Assembly: GCA_963836235.1 (NCBI GenBank)
Contig: CAWIIP010000004.1
Span: 128,001-192,000 of the forward strand
Source: an uncultured Pseudomonadota bacterium
GTDB taxonomy: Bacteria; Oederibacteriota; Muellerivitia; Muellerivitales; Muellerivitaceae
DNA length: 64,000 bases
Direction: 5' to 3'
Part shown: positions 7,500 to 18,793 of the stretch, piece by piece
How positions within the stretch are numbered: the stretch's first letter is position 1
Layout: each line of letters starts with the position of its first letter
The notes under the pieces: model-generated
Told to the model about the DNA's origin: nothing
Seen by the model: the letters and a program-made list of their open reading frames with translations, nothing else
The model's database searches: none
Position numbers and translations under genes: made by a program

Positions 7500-7723
7500 T
7501 TTTATTAACCCCTCCAGACATTCCGAAGCCTAATAAATAATGTCAAAATTTTAATTACCAAAAGAGAAACCCTCAACCCTGAAGGCTTCAAAAGAGGTAA
7601 AATCAAAATGGTCTTTGTGAAAGCGGTGTCCACGATTGGGACCCGCATTGGACAGGATAATTTTAATGATCGAGCCGTTTCTAAAGAGTTGAAATCAAGG
7701 TTGGATATTGAAAGAATCCTTTC

Positions 7724-9245: not shown

Positions 9246-9346
9246 CCGTGATGGTGAAAACCGCTACTAATGTTGTCCACGACGGGGACCCATCGTGGAC
9301 AAAGTGATAACCATTTACCGATCAAAAAAACTAGGTTATCTGAAGC

Positions 9347-10338: not shown

Positions 10339-10570
10339 TCACCACCTCCGTGATTTTTAGTTTCCCGATGATTTGAAGGGATGAATACCTGGCCCTAGTT
10401 ATGAGGGCAAATACGTTCATCTGGTATGAAAAGTTACTTCCCTTGACCAAAACAAAGGTAAAGTATTGGCCTTGTCCACGACGGGGACCCGTCGTGGACA
10501 GGCAAACCGACGGTTGAATCGGCCCCAATTTCGGTGTATTCTTACTGGTAAGATTACTGGGAGGTAACCT

Positions 10571-11229: not shown

Positions 11230-11300
11230 TTGGGTTGTCCACGACGGGGACCCGTCGTGGACAGGCTAAATTGAAAAGTATGTTTATAGATGAGGCTTAA

Positions 11301-11978: not shown

Positions 11979-12036
11979 ATTTGAGACACATTAGATGATG
12001 TCCACGATGGGGACCCGTCGTGGACAGGGGACACCA

Positions 12037-12586: not shown

Positions 12587-12701
12587 TTTCCTCGAACAAA
12601 TCGGTTTTGTGAACTCGAAAACTCTGTCCACGGCGGGGACCCGTCGTGGACACTTAAATTAAAAATGTGCTTTTAATCGAATGGGCGGGAGGAATTCTTA
12701 A

Positions 12702-13235
12702 GTGCGGCATTTTCTTTCGATGGTTTTGATTTTTGTGTTAGCGCCGATAGTGTGGGCAGACGAGGGTACCCCGGTCCCCACCCCAACCCACCCCCCTATC
12801 ACAACCCATTGGACGACCCTGGGAGGAATGCAATATTTACAAAATAACAAGGCGTTATCCGGGCCTGAGTTGAAAGATCTTATTAACTCCATCGACGATC
12901 AACAAGCCACCGCACTTCTGAATAAATCTGAATCGGATGAAACGCTAGGATTTTTTGGATTGGGTGGTTCGGTAATCCTGTCGGTTGGGTCTTTATTCTT
13001 CCCGAATACGCATATCTACATATTTGGCCTGGATATTTCCACTCCTTATATGCCTATCGCCGTTCCGGGGGCGGTTTTAGGCGTCGCGGGCGGGCTCCTT
13101 GAACTCGAAGCCAATACCGCCAAATACGCCTCTGTCCAACGCTATAACCACGTTACTAAACAATCGGATTCAATTACTTGGAACCTCACTCCCCAAAAAG
13201 ACGGTTTGGGCTTAAGTTTAGGTTATAGCTTTTGA
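12702..13235 (+). CDS. Exported/membrane hypothetical protein
   Basis: RBS GGAGGA, signal peptide, PT-rich linker, terminal YSF. Confidence 0.7.
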   Translation: MRHFLSMVLIFVLAPIVWADEGTPVPTPTHPPITTHWTTLGGMQYLQNNKALSGPELKDLINSIDDQQATALLNKSESDETLGFFGLGGSVILSVGSLFFPNTHIYIFGLDISTPYMPIAVPGAVLGVAGGLLELEANTAKYASVQRYNHVTKQSDSITWNLTPQKDGLGLSLGYSF

Positions 13236-13267
13236 ATACCAGATCAAATTGGGATTGAAAGAGTTCT

Positions 13268-14530
13268 ATGGTTAAGAAGGGCTTTACACAAAAACGTTCC
13301 CGGCGGGTTACCCTGAAAAAAACCTCTTTTCTCTATCTGTCTTTATTTGTAATGACAATGCTCTCCCTCGGATTCCTTTTTCAGGGTTGCACTTTACTTT
13401 TTGTGTCAAAAGGCGAAACACGGTACGTCGAAAATAAGACGCCTCAAACTCCCCCAGCGCCGTCACTCTCCCGTCAAATGAATAAAACGGTTGTTTTAAA
13501 ATACAAAGTTCAGGAAGGGGATACCTTCCAGTCCATTGCCGCCATTTACTATGGCGTGACTTCAAAAGCATCCAAGGTGGCATCCGCAAACCATTTGAGC
13601 CTGAAATCGAAGTTGAAAGAAGGAAAGGTCTTGAGGATCGTGGACCCGGTTAATTTCCCGAACCCCAAGGAATTGGTGAAGAAGAAACCGACAGCCCAGA
13701 CTACGACTGAAACCCCGAAACCCGGCCCTATATCCCACCTAGATACCACGCCGGAAAACATCACCCAAGTACCCCGTCCTAAAAAGAACTACGCCTTTGG
13801 GCCCGGAGAAAAGCTTACCTTTGAAGTAAAAGCTCTTTCCATGGTGGGGGGATACGGGACATTGGAGATTGGGAATCCGGTCACTGTCCAAGACCGTCCT
13901 TGTTATCCACTGTCCGCCAAAGCCACGGCGGCTTTTCCTTTCAGCATGGTTTACCAGGTACATGATGTGCAAACGAGTTATTTTGATGTGGTGGACTTCC
14001 TGACCTGGAAATTCGAGAACGACGTTCTGGAAGGCAAGCACAAGGCCCAGAACTTGGAAATCTATGACCAGGTCAAACACAAGGTCGTACGGTCCAAGGG
14101 AAATGAGCCTCCTGAGGAAATAGACATAGCCCCCTTCACCCAGGACATTATTTCCTGCTTTTTCTACTTCCGCCTTCTGCCTCTCGAAGTCGGGAAGAAC
14201 TATTCCATTCCCGCTCAGGCCGCAGGCTACAACTATAACTTGATCGTGGAGGTCATCAAAAAAGAACGAATTACCATACCTTCCGGTACTTATGATTGTC
14301 TGTTAGTGAAACCCCATGTCCGGTACGCGACGGTTTTTCGCAACACGGACGATATCAATATTTGGCTTACCGATGACCAAAGGCATTTGCCGGTATTGGT
14401 CACCAGCAAAATATTTATCGGAAATGTTGAGGCGACCCTTATCGAGGCTAACCTGCCAAAAGTGAAAGAACCTGAGAAAAAGCCCGAACCAAGAATCCAA
14501 ACCCATAAGCGCAAAAAGGAGGAAGAATGA
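13268..14530 (+). CDS. LysM + DUF3108-like lipoprotein
   Basis: Lipobox-like FQGC, LysM YKVQEGDTFQSIA, GEKLTF...IWLTDDQRHLPV. Confidence 0.75.
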   Translation: MVKKGFTQKRSRRVTLKKTSFLYLSLFVMTMLSLGFLFQGCTLLFVSKGETRYVENKTPQTPPAPSLSRQMNKTVVLKYKVQEGDTFQSIAAIYYGVTSKASKVASANHLSLKSKLKEGKVLRIVDPVNFPNPKELVKKKPTAQTTTETPKPGPISHLDTTPENITQVPRPKKNYAFGPGEKLTFEVKALSMVGGYGTLEIGNPVTVQDRPCYPLSAKATAAFPFSMVYQVHDVQTSYFDVVDFLTWKFENDVLEGKHKAQNLEIYDQVKHKVVRSKGNEPPEEIDIAPFTQDIISCFFYFRLLPLEVGKNYSIPAQAAGYNYNLIVEVIKKERITIPSGTYDCLLVKPHVRYATVFRNTDDINIWLTDDQRHLPVLVTSKIFIGNVEATLIEANLPKVKEPEKKPEPRIQTHKRKKEEE

Positions 14531-15012
14531 ACGATCCTCAGGAAATTAATCGAACTTTTAACCGTCCATTTTCGAAAGCGGCCTTTCTTCTCCTGCTTTT
14601 GCTCTTACTTCCAACTCCAAAAGCCTATTGCCGTAACGAAGCCGTAACCATCCCGCTTATCGCGGCGGATTATTATGGATGGGCCTATACCGAAGCCTTC
14701 ATGGATAAGTCCTATGTTTACGGCTGGTCCACGGCAGGCGTGGACACCTTGGGGTGGACGATCCTTCTGACACGGAAGGAATATTCGGGTTTGTTTTTCG
14801 TCAATGTGGCGGGCATCGCCAAAACCGTGTATCCGGTGGTACAGCTTTTAGCTTCGTCGGACTCGGATACCCGAAGCCGGGCGTGGATTGCCTTGGGTAC
14901 CCATACCGCGACGCTGATAAGCCTGGAACTTTTAGGCAAACCGGCTTTGAGCATTCAAACCATGGTTCCTAAAAATGGGGGCTATGGGGCGTCGTTGGCT
15001 TTTCGGTTTTAA
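14527..15012 (+). CDS. Exported/membrane hypothetical protein
   Basis: Overlapping start/stop with the upstream gene; hydrophobic N-terminus; terminal FRF. Confidence 0.6.
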   Translation: MNDPQEINRTFNRPFSKAAFLLLLLLLLPTPKAYCRNEAVTIPLIAADYYGWAYTEAFMDKSYVYGWSTAGVDTLGWTILLTRKEYSGLFFVNVAGIAKTVYPVVQLLASSDSDTRSRAWIALGTHTATLISLELLGKPALSIQTMVPKNGGYGASLAFRF

Positions 15013-15039
15013 AATAACACCAAATAATAAGAGGGAAAA

Positions 15040-15414
15040 ATGGACGATTTGATTCTGTATTTAGGTGCTTTCCTGATTGGGTCTATTCCGTTCGGATTTT
15101 TGTTGGCAATGACGTTCAAGAAAATCGACTTGAGGAAAAAGGGGACCGGCGATGTCGGCGTGACCAATGCCTGGAAGGTAGCGGGTACCCCATTGGGCCT
15201 GTTGACGCTAGTTTTGGATATTTTAAAAGGTGGCACGGCAATTTTCCTGGCCCATGGACTTTCCCCCAAAGACCAGCCGGATTGGGTTCTGGCCGGTTTC
15301 CTAGCCTTGCTTGCCGATGAATTTCCCGTTTTCTTAAAGTTCAAGGGCGGTAGAGGGATCGGAACAAGCATAGGCGTTTTTGCGTCGCTTCTTTACTGGA
15401 TGTTGAGTAAGTAA
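15040..15414 (+). pseudogene. Truncated/short PlsY-like glycerol-3-phosphate acyltransferase
   Basis: GSIPFG, DLRKKGTGDVGVTNAW, DILKG, FKGGRG motifs, but only 124 aa (full PlsY about 200 aa) and FPV-preceding His replaced (DEFPV). Confidence 0.6.
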
Positions 15415-15523
15415 AGGATCCAGCATTTTATAAACTCGTTGAAATGGTGAAAACCCCTGTCCACGACGGGGACCAGCCGTGGACAACCTCGTCCAGGCTT
15501 TTTGAACCTCACAGTGGTATGAG

Positions 15524-16300
15524 TCAGTTTTTGAAAATGCTCCAAATGTGATTAAGGAATTTTTTTGGTTTTGGCCCTGTTTCATTTTTTTGAACATCCG
15601 GCTTGGCAAGATCAAAGAGAAGAATTTCGGTGGGCATTTGGGCCGTAAATGAAACGGAAATTTCATCGGATAAACCGGCACCATCCCCTGTTTGAAGTTT
15701 TAGATCATTCATTAGAATTTGACCGCTCACCACATGAAGCCATCCGTTTCGGTCCGGGCCAAGCTCATGAATTACATGATTGCCCTTTTGAATGAGCGTG
15801 GAGTACATCCGAACGTCCTTTTGTATTTTGAGCGATTCCTTTTCCCCCTCGGGAGAGGCGATGAGTTTCAAAATCCCCTTCCGTTCTGCGTGAGTAAAGT
15901 GTTTTTTTCTATTGCCCGGTTTCGACACAAACATGCTTGGGATAAACCCGCTTTGGAAGACATGTGCGTCATCGGTTAGCAAAGTGTCGAACCCATACTC
16001 TTTTATGACGGAAGCGAGATTGATCTGATGGATTTCCCCGGATTCAAGCAACCCGGACGTTCCCAATGGGCCATCATAGATAATTAAGCCTTCCTTAACA
16101 TAAGCTACGATCACTGCATTCTCATGGGTGCTTAGTATGAATCCCGTACCTGGGGAAAGTATTTCTTCGTTGAATATTTTGAGTCCGCCAAACCCATTTT
16201 GTAGGGAATCGGTATTATTTTCCCAGTCGAAGGTTCTCCAGGTGTTTCGAACATTGTCCGCAATATGACGACGTTCTTCCGACTTCCGCACGTTAATCAT
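15524..16300 (-). CDS. Pirin-like bicupin (YhhW/YhaK type)
   Basis: RKSEERRH, FGGLKIFNEEIL.PGTGF, WLHVVSG, GDGA, EILLFDL. Confidence 0.8.
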   Translation of the reverse strand: MINVRKSEERRHIADNVRNTWRTFDWENNTDSLQNGFGGLKIFNEEILSPGTGFILSTHENAVIVAYVKEGLIIYDGPLGTSGLLESGEIHQINLASVIKEYGFDTLLTDDAHVFQSGFIPSMFVSKPGNRKKHFTHAERKGILKLIASPEGEKESLKIQKDVRMYSTLIQKGNHVIHELGPDRNGWLHVVSGQILMNDLKLQTGDGAGLSDEISVSFTAQMPTEILLFDLAKPDVQKNETGPKPKKFLNHIWSIFKN

Positions 16301-16650
16301 TTTTTTGATTTCGTAATCGTTATTGGACGTTCAGCGAAGTCTAGTATGAGTCGGTTTAAAAAAGTTCGGGGGGGGGCGAAATTTTAGATAGAACTCTCAT
16401 GGGAGATTCTCCGAAGCGGTGGATTGTGTGCGAAAAAATTGATGTTTAAAATATACCCTGGTTTGAAAATTAAACCTGCCGAATTCGAAACTATTTAATA
16501 TTCAAGATTCTCCCACTGGCAGATTTATCAAAATGAGAGCCATGAAAAAGGAAAAAATGGTTAAATTTAGGAGTTGAGGGTTGTCCACGACGGGGACCCG
16601 TCGTGGACAGGGCGAAACCATAAAAAGTCGTTCCATTGGAGGTGAATTTA

Positions 16651-17085
16651 ATGGCTATTGATACCAGTGGCAAGTTCTGGAAAGGTCAAAACACCGACGA
16701 CTTGATCGAATATATCCGTCTTCTCACAAAAGAGGGATATCCCACCAGTAAACATGTCGTCGCTAAATGTACCTGCGGAAAACAACACTTCCAACTTACC
16801 GCTGACCAAGATGAAGGATGCGCCAAACGCATTTGTACTTCCTGCGGGAAAGAAACGTTTATTTGCGATAGTGAAGAAGCGTGGCAGGACTCCTCCTCGA
16901 AGAAATTAAAGTGTAAATGCAAAACGGACATTTTTGAGATCGTTGTTGGCTTTTCCCTGAGAGACGATGGTGAGATAAAATGGGTTAACGTCGGTCAACG
17001 ATGTGTTAATTGCGGAATACTTGGGTCGTATGTTAATTGGGGTATTGATTATGCTCCAACGAAACAACTTTATACGATGGTATGA
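16651..17085 (+). CDS. Cys-rich (zinc-ribbon) hypothetical protein
   Basis: RBS GGAGGT; CTC, CTSC, CKC, CVNC pairs; fills one cassette. Confidence 0.7.
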   Translation: MAIDTSGKFWKGQNTDDLIEYIRLLTKEGYPTSKHVVAKCTCGKQHFQLTADQDEGCAKRICTSCGKETFICDSEEAWQDSSSKKLKCKCKTDIFEIVVGFSLRDDGEIKWVNVGQRCVNCGILGSYVNWGIDYAPTKQLYTMV

Positions 17086-17115
17086 CTTGTCCACGACGGG
17101 GAGGCAAAGTAAACA

Positions 17116-17403
17116 ATGTATTTTAAGTTTTTGAATAAGCCGATACCAAAACGTGTTTACATTGAAACTAAATGGCTAAGGAAATTAGTGGCTTGGTATC
17201 TTATAGTTCACACGTTAATAGGGTATTTAATATTCTGGAAAATTTTTCCCCGGTATCATGCAGATGGTTCACTGAACCCTTGGTATTTTGTTTTTTTGCC
17301 CGTGATGTTGTTATGCGTTCTTATAACTTTTGTTATCTTTTATTGCTTTGTGGGTTATGTGGAAAAGTTTTTCCTTAAAAAGCCAAAAAATATAAAAAGA
17401 TGA
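17116..17403 (+). CDS. Small 2-TM membrane protein
   Basis: Two hydrophobic helices, basic ends; exactly fills the interval between two sites. Confidence 0.6.
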   Translation: MYFKFLNKPIPKRVYIETKWLRKLVAWYLIVHTLIGYLIFWKIFPRYHADGSLNPWYFVFLPVMLLCVLITFVIFYCFVGYVEKFFLKKPKNIKR

Positions 17404-17481
17404 TTAGATTGTCCACGACGGGGACCCATCGTGGACAGGGAAAAGGCTTTAGAAGGCTTTTCGATATGAGGAGTAAAATTA

Positions 17482-17811
17482 ATGAGCGATGAAGAGATTT
17501 TTGAAAGCGCCATCAATCAAAACGGGGATTTGGGCGCTGTATTCGAACGGGCGGACGGCACTTGTTACTTTTACTTATGCAAAATAAAAGATGGAAAACC
17601 AGATGGGGTAATGGACACGATTCATGTCACCTCAAAAAAACCTGATTTTGGTCAAAAGGATATTGAAGTGAAGTGGAATCACTCAGGGGAAAAGGTTGGT
17701 TTCTTAGTGAAGGGGAAACTCGTTGCATTTTTTGACACGAAAACGAAAAGCAAACATGGAGAGAATATGACTCCGATTATTCCGGAGATCGTCGAAAGCT
17801 TCGGGGTTTAG
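17482..17811 (+). CDS. DUF2251-like hypothetical protein
   Basis: RBS GAGGAG; AVFERADGTCYFY...DTIHV...W....KVGFLVKG...FFD pattern. Confidence 0.55.
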   Translation: MSDEEIFESAINQNGDLGAVFERADGTCYFYLCKIKDGKPDGVMDTIHVTSKKPDFGQKDIEVKWNHSGEKVGFLVKGKLVAFFDTKTKSKHGENMTPIIPEIVESFGV

Positions 17812-17964
17812 AAAGCAAACAATAATTTGAGGTTGTCCACGATGGGGAGCCGTATTGGACGGTTAAATGATTAGTAGGCTTATTCAATAAGGGGAGGCGT
17901 TTATGAAATGGTGGATGAAAGGCCATTTTAATGGCGTTGAATTCATGTGGTGTGAGGTTCACAA

Positions 17965-18627
17965 ATGTTTCTGAATAGAGAAAAATATAAATGGTCTTTT
18001 GTTGGGATCGTTATAGGTTTTTTAATAGCGGGATGTTTTTGTAATGGTTTATTGTTTCATGAATGGAAAGATGTTATGGCGGCGTTGATTGGAGCTGCAG
18101 TTGGCGGTGGAGTTACATGGCTTACTACCAGAGAATTAATAGATCAACAAATTAAACTTGAAAAAGTGAAAAGCGAATTAATACAAATTCACTTCATTAA
18201 AGCCGTGAAAACAGAAATTAAAATTCTAAAAGATATTTATATGCAAATGGTTGGTAACGAAACTGAAAAACTTAAAGTTGGAGAACCTTTGAACCTTACG
18301 TGGTCAAATCACCAAGATTATTTTACGATTTATCAAGGCAACAGCAGTTTTATAGGTGGGGTGACAGATGATGCCTTGCGGGAATTGATTGTGGCCACAT
18401 ATGCGAAGGCGAAGGGGTTGTTGGATTCATACAGTCACAATAACGAATTGGTTGAAAGACTAGATTATTTAGCTAAAGAAAGTCGCACAGGATTTGGTAT
18501 GAAGCCGACGGTTACCGCAGAACAGTACAAAGATCATTTAACAATGATGGTTAAATATGCCGAAGGTATCAAAGGTTCGCATCAAGACTTTTTAAAAAAC
18601 GTAAATGAGTTATTGGCGAAAATCTAA
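17965..18627 (+). CDS. Membrane-anchored hypothetical protein
   Basis: Two N-terminal TM helices followed by a helical domain. Confidence 0.7.
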   Translation: MFLNREKYKWSFVGIVIGFLIAGCFCNGLLFHEWKDVMAALIGAAVGGGVTWLTTRELIDQQIKLEKVKSELIQIHFIKAVKTEIKILKDIYMQMVGNETEKLKVGEPLNLTWSNHQDYFTIYQGNSSFIGGVTDDALRELIVATYAKAKGLLDSYSHNNELVERLDYLAKESRTGFGMKPTVTAEQYKDHLTMMVKYAEGIKGSHQDFLKNVNELLAKI

Positions 18628-18793
18628 AAGGGGGTCTTGGTTGTCCACGACGGGGAGGCGTCCTTCTTAATTGCAATCCCAAGACCTGGCCCCATTTTTT
18701 CAGACCCAATTTTCCATAATCGTACGAGATGGTCAACACGGTTAGTCTCATTTCCATTCTAACGTCCTTAGGACTTTCAACCGTTTTTAAATA

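Follow-up and report, generated by a model that had tools for sequence, protein, structure and literature searches.

Two apparent half-sites in a gene-cassette array of candidate division FCPU426 are probably decayed copies of a 28-bp boundary palindrome

INTRODUCTION

Gene-cassette capture is, to our knowledge, known almost solely from integrons, where a tyrosine recombinase acts on folded attC sites. These sites are 57–141 bp long, with R''/L''/L'/R' boxes, a GTTRRRY core, imperfect pairing and extrahelical bases, and clusters of attC sites without an integrase are called CALINs. Shorter sites serve other recombinases. The dif sites are 28 bp, and one strong and one weak arm are usual for the sites of Xer- or integron-like tyrosine recombinases. 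In the Xer-dependent pdif modules of Acinetobacter, 28-bp sites that resemble dif and alternate in orientation flank small accessory modules, including toxin–antitoxin genes, on mobile elements. The sites of small serine recombinases (res site I, hix/gix) have 12–13 bp inverted arms around a 2-bp centre, 26–28 bp in total, and an asymmetric central dinucleotide fixes their orientation.

Here we describe a cassette array in a stretch of 64 kb, referred to below as the window (G000:C4:128001-192000, within a 3.97-Mb genome of five contigs). The repeat that bounds its cassettes is also present in public records of candidate division FCPU426. As in integron arrays and CALINs, the cassettes mostly carry a single gene, lie in one orientation and frequently encode toxin–antitoxin pairs; a palindromic site just 3' of the stop codon ends each cassette, many arrays have no recombinase gene nearby, and group II introns occur in the sites. 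Co-oriented, site-bounded cassettes are exchanged between genomes, as in integrons. The differences lie in the site and the enzyme. The FCPU426 site is a compact 28-bp near-perfect palindrome with a conserved sequence instead of the attC architecture, neither IntI in 31 genomes nor a shared attI-like platform was found, and the candidate enzyme is a serine recombinase, encoded at the array 3' end in convergent orientation to the cassettes. In its workings the system resembles an integron with CALIN-type arrays, but the searches for IntI and for attC architecture were both negative.

Inverted arms around a 2-bp centre are shared with res site I and hix/gix, and the geometry of the site and its invariant asymmetric centre, GA, match a serine recombinase crossover site. 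Unlike those sites, the palindromes number tens per genome and bound cassettes, and their arms are G+C-rich and unequally conserved; the enzymes of res and hix are helix-turn-helix resolvases and invertases, whereas the candidate here comes from the large serine recombinases, with Resolvase and Recombinase domains. SCC elements with their Ccr enzymes are likewise serine-recombinase-driven units able to lie in tandem, and CcrB, CcrA and XisF are the models that score best with the candidate, all below their cut-offs. SCC elements are large, however, and use one chromosomal site and enzymes of 440–560 aa, as opposed to 0.3–2.8 kb units in dispersed arrays and an enzyme of ∼277 aa with nothing past the Recombinase domain. 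The pdif modules resemble the array in having 28-bp sites that flank small accessory modules, toxin–antitoxin genes included, but differ from its uniform orientation, and no link to Xer was found. Judged by titles and abstracts, the listed papers on FCPU426, and those on serine recombinases with cassette arrays or integron-like cassettes, gave no description of such a system, and the underlying cassette system looks new.

RESULTS

A cassette array on a conjugative element

The window holds 12 copies of a 28-bp palindrome between 7627 and 18669, on the + strand throughout, with the consensus TGTCCACGACGGG-GA-CCCGTCGTGGACA (13-2-13). The 15-mer formed by the left arm and GA has 21 matches with at most three mismatches in the window, against 1.73 expected, and none of 100 shuffles reached 21. 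The array opens with a degenerate site at 7627..7654 (two mismatches in the left arm and three in the right), which on folding gives no hairpin (-7.8 kcal/mol). Full 28-bp sites follow at 9274..9301 (left/right arm mismatches 0/1), 10473..10500 (0/0), 11236..11263 (0/0), 11999..12026 (1/0), 12625..12652 (1/0), 15458..15485 (0/2), 16582..16609 (0/0) and 17410..17437 (0/1), all on the + strand, and full sites fold with -18 to -26 kcal/mol. The remaining three copies, at 17088, 17834 and 18642, are treated separately below.

The sites lie 2–40 nt 3' of the stop codons of small genes. Among the cargo are VapBC-like and BrnT/BrnA pairs, a peroxiredoxin, a pirin-like protein and several ORFs without a family. 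The array is hosted by a conjugative element, which encodes a TraG/TraD-like coupling protein (4072) and TrbL/VirB6 (60546). A related conjugative element without an array lies in tandem (C4:197-245 kb); it holds no copy of the sequence 3' of 18642, so that no 'empty site' can be read from it. In each of the tandem elements (window 4072-64000; C4:197494-246500) the coupling protein and a ∼370-aa tyrosine integrase are encoded at opposite ends.

Contigs from four peat and moss runs gave long cover only for 12625-16599. They end at palindromes, the site at 12625 being one of their start points, and the apparent 'joints' in them are short (20–31 nt) matches to the repeat itself. The part at 16683-18787 is nearly without cover in these four runs, which carries no weight either way.

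The palindrome family across genomes

An unbiased scan of the genome that contains the window yielded about 75 real sites, grouped in about 20 clusters of one orientation each. Exact copies of the 15-mer occur in 20 of the 24 other family genomes and in the single genome from a second family in the order, and none was found in 15 genomes from other families of the phylum. Pooling the arrays of this genome with those of 12 relatives gave 322 sites in 528 kb, with uniform orientation in 65 of 66 sources. The conserved element measures 28–30 bp; information content in the flanks stays below 0.7 bits at each position, and a GTT core is lacking. Of the 176 sites with two good arms, 173 have a 2-nt spacer, which reads GA in 169 of them. 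The array ends have no sequence in common, and no attI-like platform was seen there.

The first point to note is that the two arms are not equally conserved, an asymmetry that is strong and unusual for a dimeric serine recombinase site. In the symmetric scan of the window's own genome, left-only sites outnumber right-only sites by about 13 to 2. Among the 322 pooled sites a good left arm accompanies a poor right arm 100 times and the reverse holds six times, a count somewhat biased by the choice of relatives' loci through the left 15-mer. The information content is 0.6–1.2 bits at R4–R7 as against 1.4–1.9 bits at L7–L10, and about half of the right arms have inner mismatches. Compensatory change between paired arm positions was not seen (L10 × R4, p = 0.51; L9 × R5, p = 0.70), which speaks against selection for a hairpin. 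The sequence of the palindrome itself, beyond its structure, is conserved across 16 genera.

Two known classes were considered and rejected for the family. As an intrinsic terminator the site fails, since the positions after it are A-rich and no T run follows; membership of the REP/RAYT class fails because the Y1_Tnp genes have other flanks and the sites are clustered in about 20 arrays. The genome does encode three ∼320-aa IS200-like proteins with a Y1 transposase domain (C2:2047677, C5:263448 and C2:1841972), whose genes have short inverted motifs of their own in the flanks and no cassette palindrome.

A natural GG subclass of right arms

In the pooled set the two bases after GA are CC in 256 sites, GG in 27, GC in 21 and TC in eight, and GGC follows GA in 13 of the 322. 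With GG and GGC at these frequencies, the GGC common to the sites at 17088 and 18642 is unremarkable. The distal right arm (R8–R13) is intact, with at most one mismatch, in 12 of the 27 GG sites, as in GGCGTAGTGGACA at C1:236010. To judge from such arms, GG after GA is a natural subclass and no mark of foreign DNA, contrary to a first-pass annotation of the window, which had read the two sites as junctions with non-cognate GGAGGC-like sites. The degenerate copy noted there at 17834 is a GCC-type site (17834..17861, + strand): it reads TGTCCACGATGGGGA, then GCC, as described, and retains its distal right arm (arm mismatches 1/4).

The subclass also has features of its own. The distal arm is lost in 12 of 27 GG sites as against 19 of 256 CC sites (p = 2e-6). 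An ORF of at least 60 codons starts within 15 nt of GGAGG at eight of the 15 GG sites with a lost or weak arm, which include both 17088 and 18642, compared with 17 of 221 intact CC sites (p = 2e-5). We infer that the GGGGA of the left arm together with GG serves as ribosome-binding site for genes that start at the site, and that pairing between the arms would be selected against where the bases are so used.

The sites at 17088 and 18642

The site at 17088..17115 (+) begins with TGTCCACGACGGGGA at 17088-17102, a perfect left arm and GA, followed by GGCAAAG, exactly as annotated, and an ATG does follow at 17116. The right arm, which had been called absent, can still be recognised in diverged form as GGCAAAGTAAACA. 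Scored with a profile built from 231 right arms outside the window, its bases R3–R13 reach 3.18 bits (p = 0.002 against the 13-mers of contig C4). It is identical at 10 of 13 positions to a natural arm, GCCAAAGTGGACA (L093), and its distal GTAAACA is common to C1:376354 and L106. On these matches, the right part of the site is a diverged GG-type arm, not foreign DNA.

A 149-codon ORF (16636..17085, +) ends 2 nt ahead of this site, and a 95-codon ORF encoding a hydrophobic orphan protein (17116..17403, +) starts at the ATG. GGGGAGG stands 11 nt ahead of that ATG, and the GGAGG across the site centre (17100..17104, +) is likely to be its Shine–Dalgarno sequence, given the spacing and the statistics of the GG class. 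The hairpin is gone (-4.9 kcal/mol, compared with -18 to -26 kcal/mol for full sites). A search for donor loci of the downstream genes, as the annotation had proposed, yielded none: with the 921-base stretch 16560-17480, relatives matched solely at palindromes, and the 95-aa protein had no relative among 5.8 billion proteins.

At 18642..18662 (+), the last site of the array, the letters again agree with the annotation (TGTCCACGACGGGGA at 18642-18656, then GGCGTCC). The right arm as a whole is not arm-like (profile p = 0.13). Its first six bases, R1–R6 (GGCGTC), do match GG-type arms such as that at C1:236010, so that here the arm is truncated, not absent; the site reads GGCGTCCTTCTTA. From 18663 the flank is 86–97% identical over 30–37 nt to a short repeat found in G017 (three copies), G011 (two) and G008 (one), in unrelated settings, while the genome of the window has a single copy. 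Since homology to this unrelated repeat starts at 18663, the break lies 6–7 nt to the right of GA. The two sites had both been described as breaking exactly after GA; with an arm recognisable at 17088 and a break further right at 18642, neither marks a crossover point.

The earlier remark that GGAGG is also a ribosome-binding sequence holds for 17088, by its spacing and the ORF statistics of the GG class. It does not extend to 18642, where the distance to the next ORF of 60 codons or more is 135 nt. For the 197-aa gene that follows 18642, G020 has a relative with 72% DNA identity; no site lies near that relative, and the homology is confined to the coding part. An 11-nt match, GCAATCCCAAG, after a half-site in L119 was followed up and dropped, as it did not extend into wider homology with the window. 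The ∼33-nt repeat that replaces the rest of the arm at 18663-18698 (+; TTCTTAAYTGCAATCCCAAGACCTGRCCCC type) occurs in three other genera, including G017, a genome without the exact palindrome 15-mer. An 8-bp inverted repeat has one half on either side of the 18642 site (GGTCTTGG / CCAAGACC).

Cassette mobility and the position of exchange

Homologous cassettes in differing contexts have their shared sequence confined between two palindromes and ending inside them. One such cassette is 99.2% identical over 858 nt between a genome of another genus (G021) and that of the window (C2:1479156-1479984), and two arrays of the latter share another that is 100% identical over 1276 nt. A rare left-arm variant, T at L8, moves with the upstream cassette, and three pairs whose upstream cassettes are homologous have right arms that diverge at R1, GG versus CC. 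Taken together, the boundary falls between L8 and R1. One informative pair shares G at L9, a base found in 27 of 322 sites, at the 5' site despite differing upstream flanks; unless this is coincidence, the boundary may lie to the left of the centre.

Good left arms are present in 294 sites, of which 40 have lost the distal right arm. Plotting where these sites diverge, as had been suggested, gave a non-random distribution. In 21 of them divergence sets in at R1, directly after GA (12 with GG, four with GC), and in the others after two bases (two sites), three (six), four (two), five (two), six (one), seven (five) or eight (one). The concentration directly after GA makes exchange at GA plausible, and the later breaks, judged by what follows them, are largely insertions. 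Two are group II introns, recognised by Rfam matches for D1-D4-6 and domain V/VI (RF02005 and RF00029) and encoding a 436-aa reverse transcriptase, which lie inside the palindrome after GACCC(A) at C1:223049-224980 and C2:1476562-1478493; the right arm (TCGTGGACA) resumes at the intron 3' end, and a relative, L090, has two instances of this junction. A second recurrent flank, CCCATTCGAC..., stands in place of the right arm after GACCC at C2:427130, C2:1231169 and C2:1943049. Recurrent arm-replacing flanks (CCCATTCGAC..., CCCCGTTCGACTC...) are also seen in L096, L117, L120 and L123, and at C2:1943049-1943597 about 520 bp separate the left from the right arm, as if a small element had been inserted.

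A candidate serine recombinase

No recombinase gene lies in or beside the array of the window, and when the ORFs within 10 kb of the 20 arrays of this genome were clustered, cargo-like families and no recombinase were obtained. The same genome nevertheless encodes a 278-aa copy of a protein of about 277 aa that combines a Resolvase with a Recombinase domain. Its gene (C2:163827-164663) lies at the 3' end of a three-site array, where an inverted site follows 35 nt after the stop codon. Orthologues with 72–79% identity in G022, G042 and G045 share this arrangement, so that four genomes, G000 included, have an inverted site within about 40 nt of the recombinase stop codon; fragments are present in G018 and G046. 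The loci of these relatives have no homology outside the gene. Of the metagenome orthologues (at least 75% identity), six extend past the stop codon; five of these also carry an inverted site within about 40 nt, and the sixth has a direct site 113 nt away, whereas 73 relatives at 55–61% identity have no palindrome. In G001 the site beside the recombinase gene has no left arm and breaks at the centre, while a metagenome relative, L243, has it whole. The last 26 codons of such a gene were found beside the terminal site of another array in the genome of the window. With a dN/dS of 0.08–0.16, the recombinase is under purifying selection.

The gene is not evenly distributed. A Resolvase domain was detected in only 12 of the 31 family genomes, and is missing from the nearly complete, array-rich genomes G005 (98% complete), G010 (99%) and G021. 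The link between recombinase and site is circumstantial. Searches for an integron integrase (TIGR02249) gave no match above the cut-off in any of the 31 family genomes, the best score in the window's genome being 40.9 bits against a cut-off of 265. That genome has eight tyrosine recombinases, none of them next to an array; seven are integrases of ∼370 aa that accompany conjugative-element modules. No homologue of them was seen in 52 array loci of relatives.

A variant palindrome with TGTCCCCTNAGGG-type arms lies beside some of the recombinase genes (C2:164698 and the metagenome contigs L240 and L241), and could be a recombinase-proximal site type.

DISCUSSION

We consider it probable that the sites are the boundary palindromes of mobile cassettes and that the two apparent half-sites are decayed full sites of the GG subclass; separately, exchange near GA by the short serine recombinase fits the data from the family. 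The 28-bp palindrome would thus be the boundary site of mobile gene cassettes in FCPU426, in which the strongly conserved left arm and GA close each cassette and the weakly constrained right arm opens the next. At 17088 the drift of the right arm would stem from its overlap with the start of translation of the next gene, GGGGAGG being used as Shine–Dalgarno sequence, with the hairpin lost and the ATG at 17116. At 18642 six nt of a GG-type arm seem to be left and the remainder to have been replaced by the unrelated short repeat, and in the absence of a nearby ORF start the ribosome-binding explanation covers 17088 alone. The ∼277-aa serine recombinase, encoded at array ends elsewhere, may act in trans at or next to GA. 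Exchange at the central GA by this enzyme is plausible from the comparisons across the family, and the two window sites are no evidence for it. The general idea of the first-pass annotation, exchange at GA by a serine recombinase, is partly borne out, whilst its two examples are not.

That annotation had taken both sites for hybrid junctions, in which a serine recombinase cuts at GA and the left half is joined to a GGAGGC-like secondary site, so making or capturing cassettes. The 21 of 40 arm-less sites that diverge directly after GA, 12 of them with GG, would agree with this, as would the near-invariant centre, the association of a serine recombinase with arrays and the centre break beside the G001 gene, whole in L243. 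At 17088, however, the right arm is retained, at 18642 GGCGTC is retained and foreign DNA begins only at 18663, and 12 of the 27 GG sites have intact arms. If secondary sites were the targets of insertion, left-only and right-only hybrids should moreover arise equally often, whereas the former are in large excess, both in the symmetric scan and overall; nor was a donor found. We regard hybrid junctions as quite unlikely. A tyrosine recombinase of Xer- or integron-like type, for which the same 28 bp would be read as 11-bp arms around a 6-bp GGGACC centre (11-6-11) and GGGAGG as a separate compatibility class, is in our estimate unlikely. The 31 genomes gave no integron integrase above the family cut-off, the ∼370-aa integrases go with conjugative-element modules and not with arrays, the 52 array loci of relatives hold no homologue, and nothing conserved at the array ends could act as an attI-like site. 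The points that favour it are the length of 28 bp, as in dif sites, the unequal arms and the eight tyrosine recombinase matches in the genome.

The palindromes might instead be REP-like or terminator-like hairpins, kept or spread for their RNA or DNA structure, with half-sites arising by ordinary mutational decay and no site-specific exchange. Full sites fold strongly, they lie 2–40 nt after stop codons, and group II introns, which part of the literature describes as targeting stem-loops, are inserted in two sites of the genome. The arms nevertheless show no compensatory changes and frequent inner mismatches on the right, no T run follows the sites, 16 genera conserve the sequence and not just the structure, the homology between cassettes stops within the sites, and the three Y1-transposase genes lack a flanking palindrome. 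Purely structural hairpins are, in our view, very unlikely.

Returning to boundary sites of mobile cassettes, a wider hypothesis, which we put forward tentatively and at rather less than even chances, is that FCPU426 carries an analogue of the integron. Cassettes would be excised and inserted at the 28-bp palindrome, with crossover at GA, by the ∼277-aa serine recombinase, an enzyme derived from large serine recombinases with the catalytic and Recombinase domains only; the arrays are scattered on the chromosome and carried on conjugative elements, and a GG cassette, wherever it is inserted, would make up its own ribosome-binding site with the help of the invariant GGGGA in the site upstream. 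If this is true, a second, independently evolved cassette system exists in an uncultured peat phylum, using a short double-stranded site and a serine recombinase; this organisation of accessory genes would be convergent, and a compact recombinase–site pair would be available for study. The two sites also illustrate that, before apparent half-sites are called recombination scars, they need scoring against the range in which the repeat naturally varies.

Elsewhere in the window, Pfam matches at 26768-54794 reveal a dense run of defence-like genes. These include two WYL proteins with an FtsZ/tubulin-like protein, GmrSD and a 1141-aa nuclease-helicase, together with a patatin and DncV-like nucleotidyltransferase (CBASS-like), a DUF499 protein with a DUF1156 methylase and SNF2 helicase, and HamA with a helicase (Hachiman-like).
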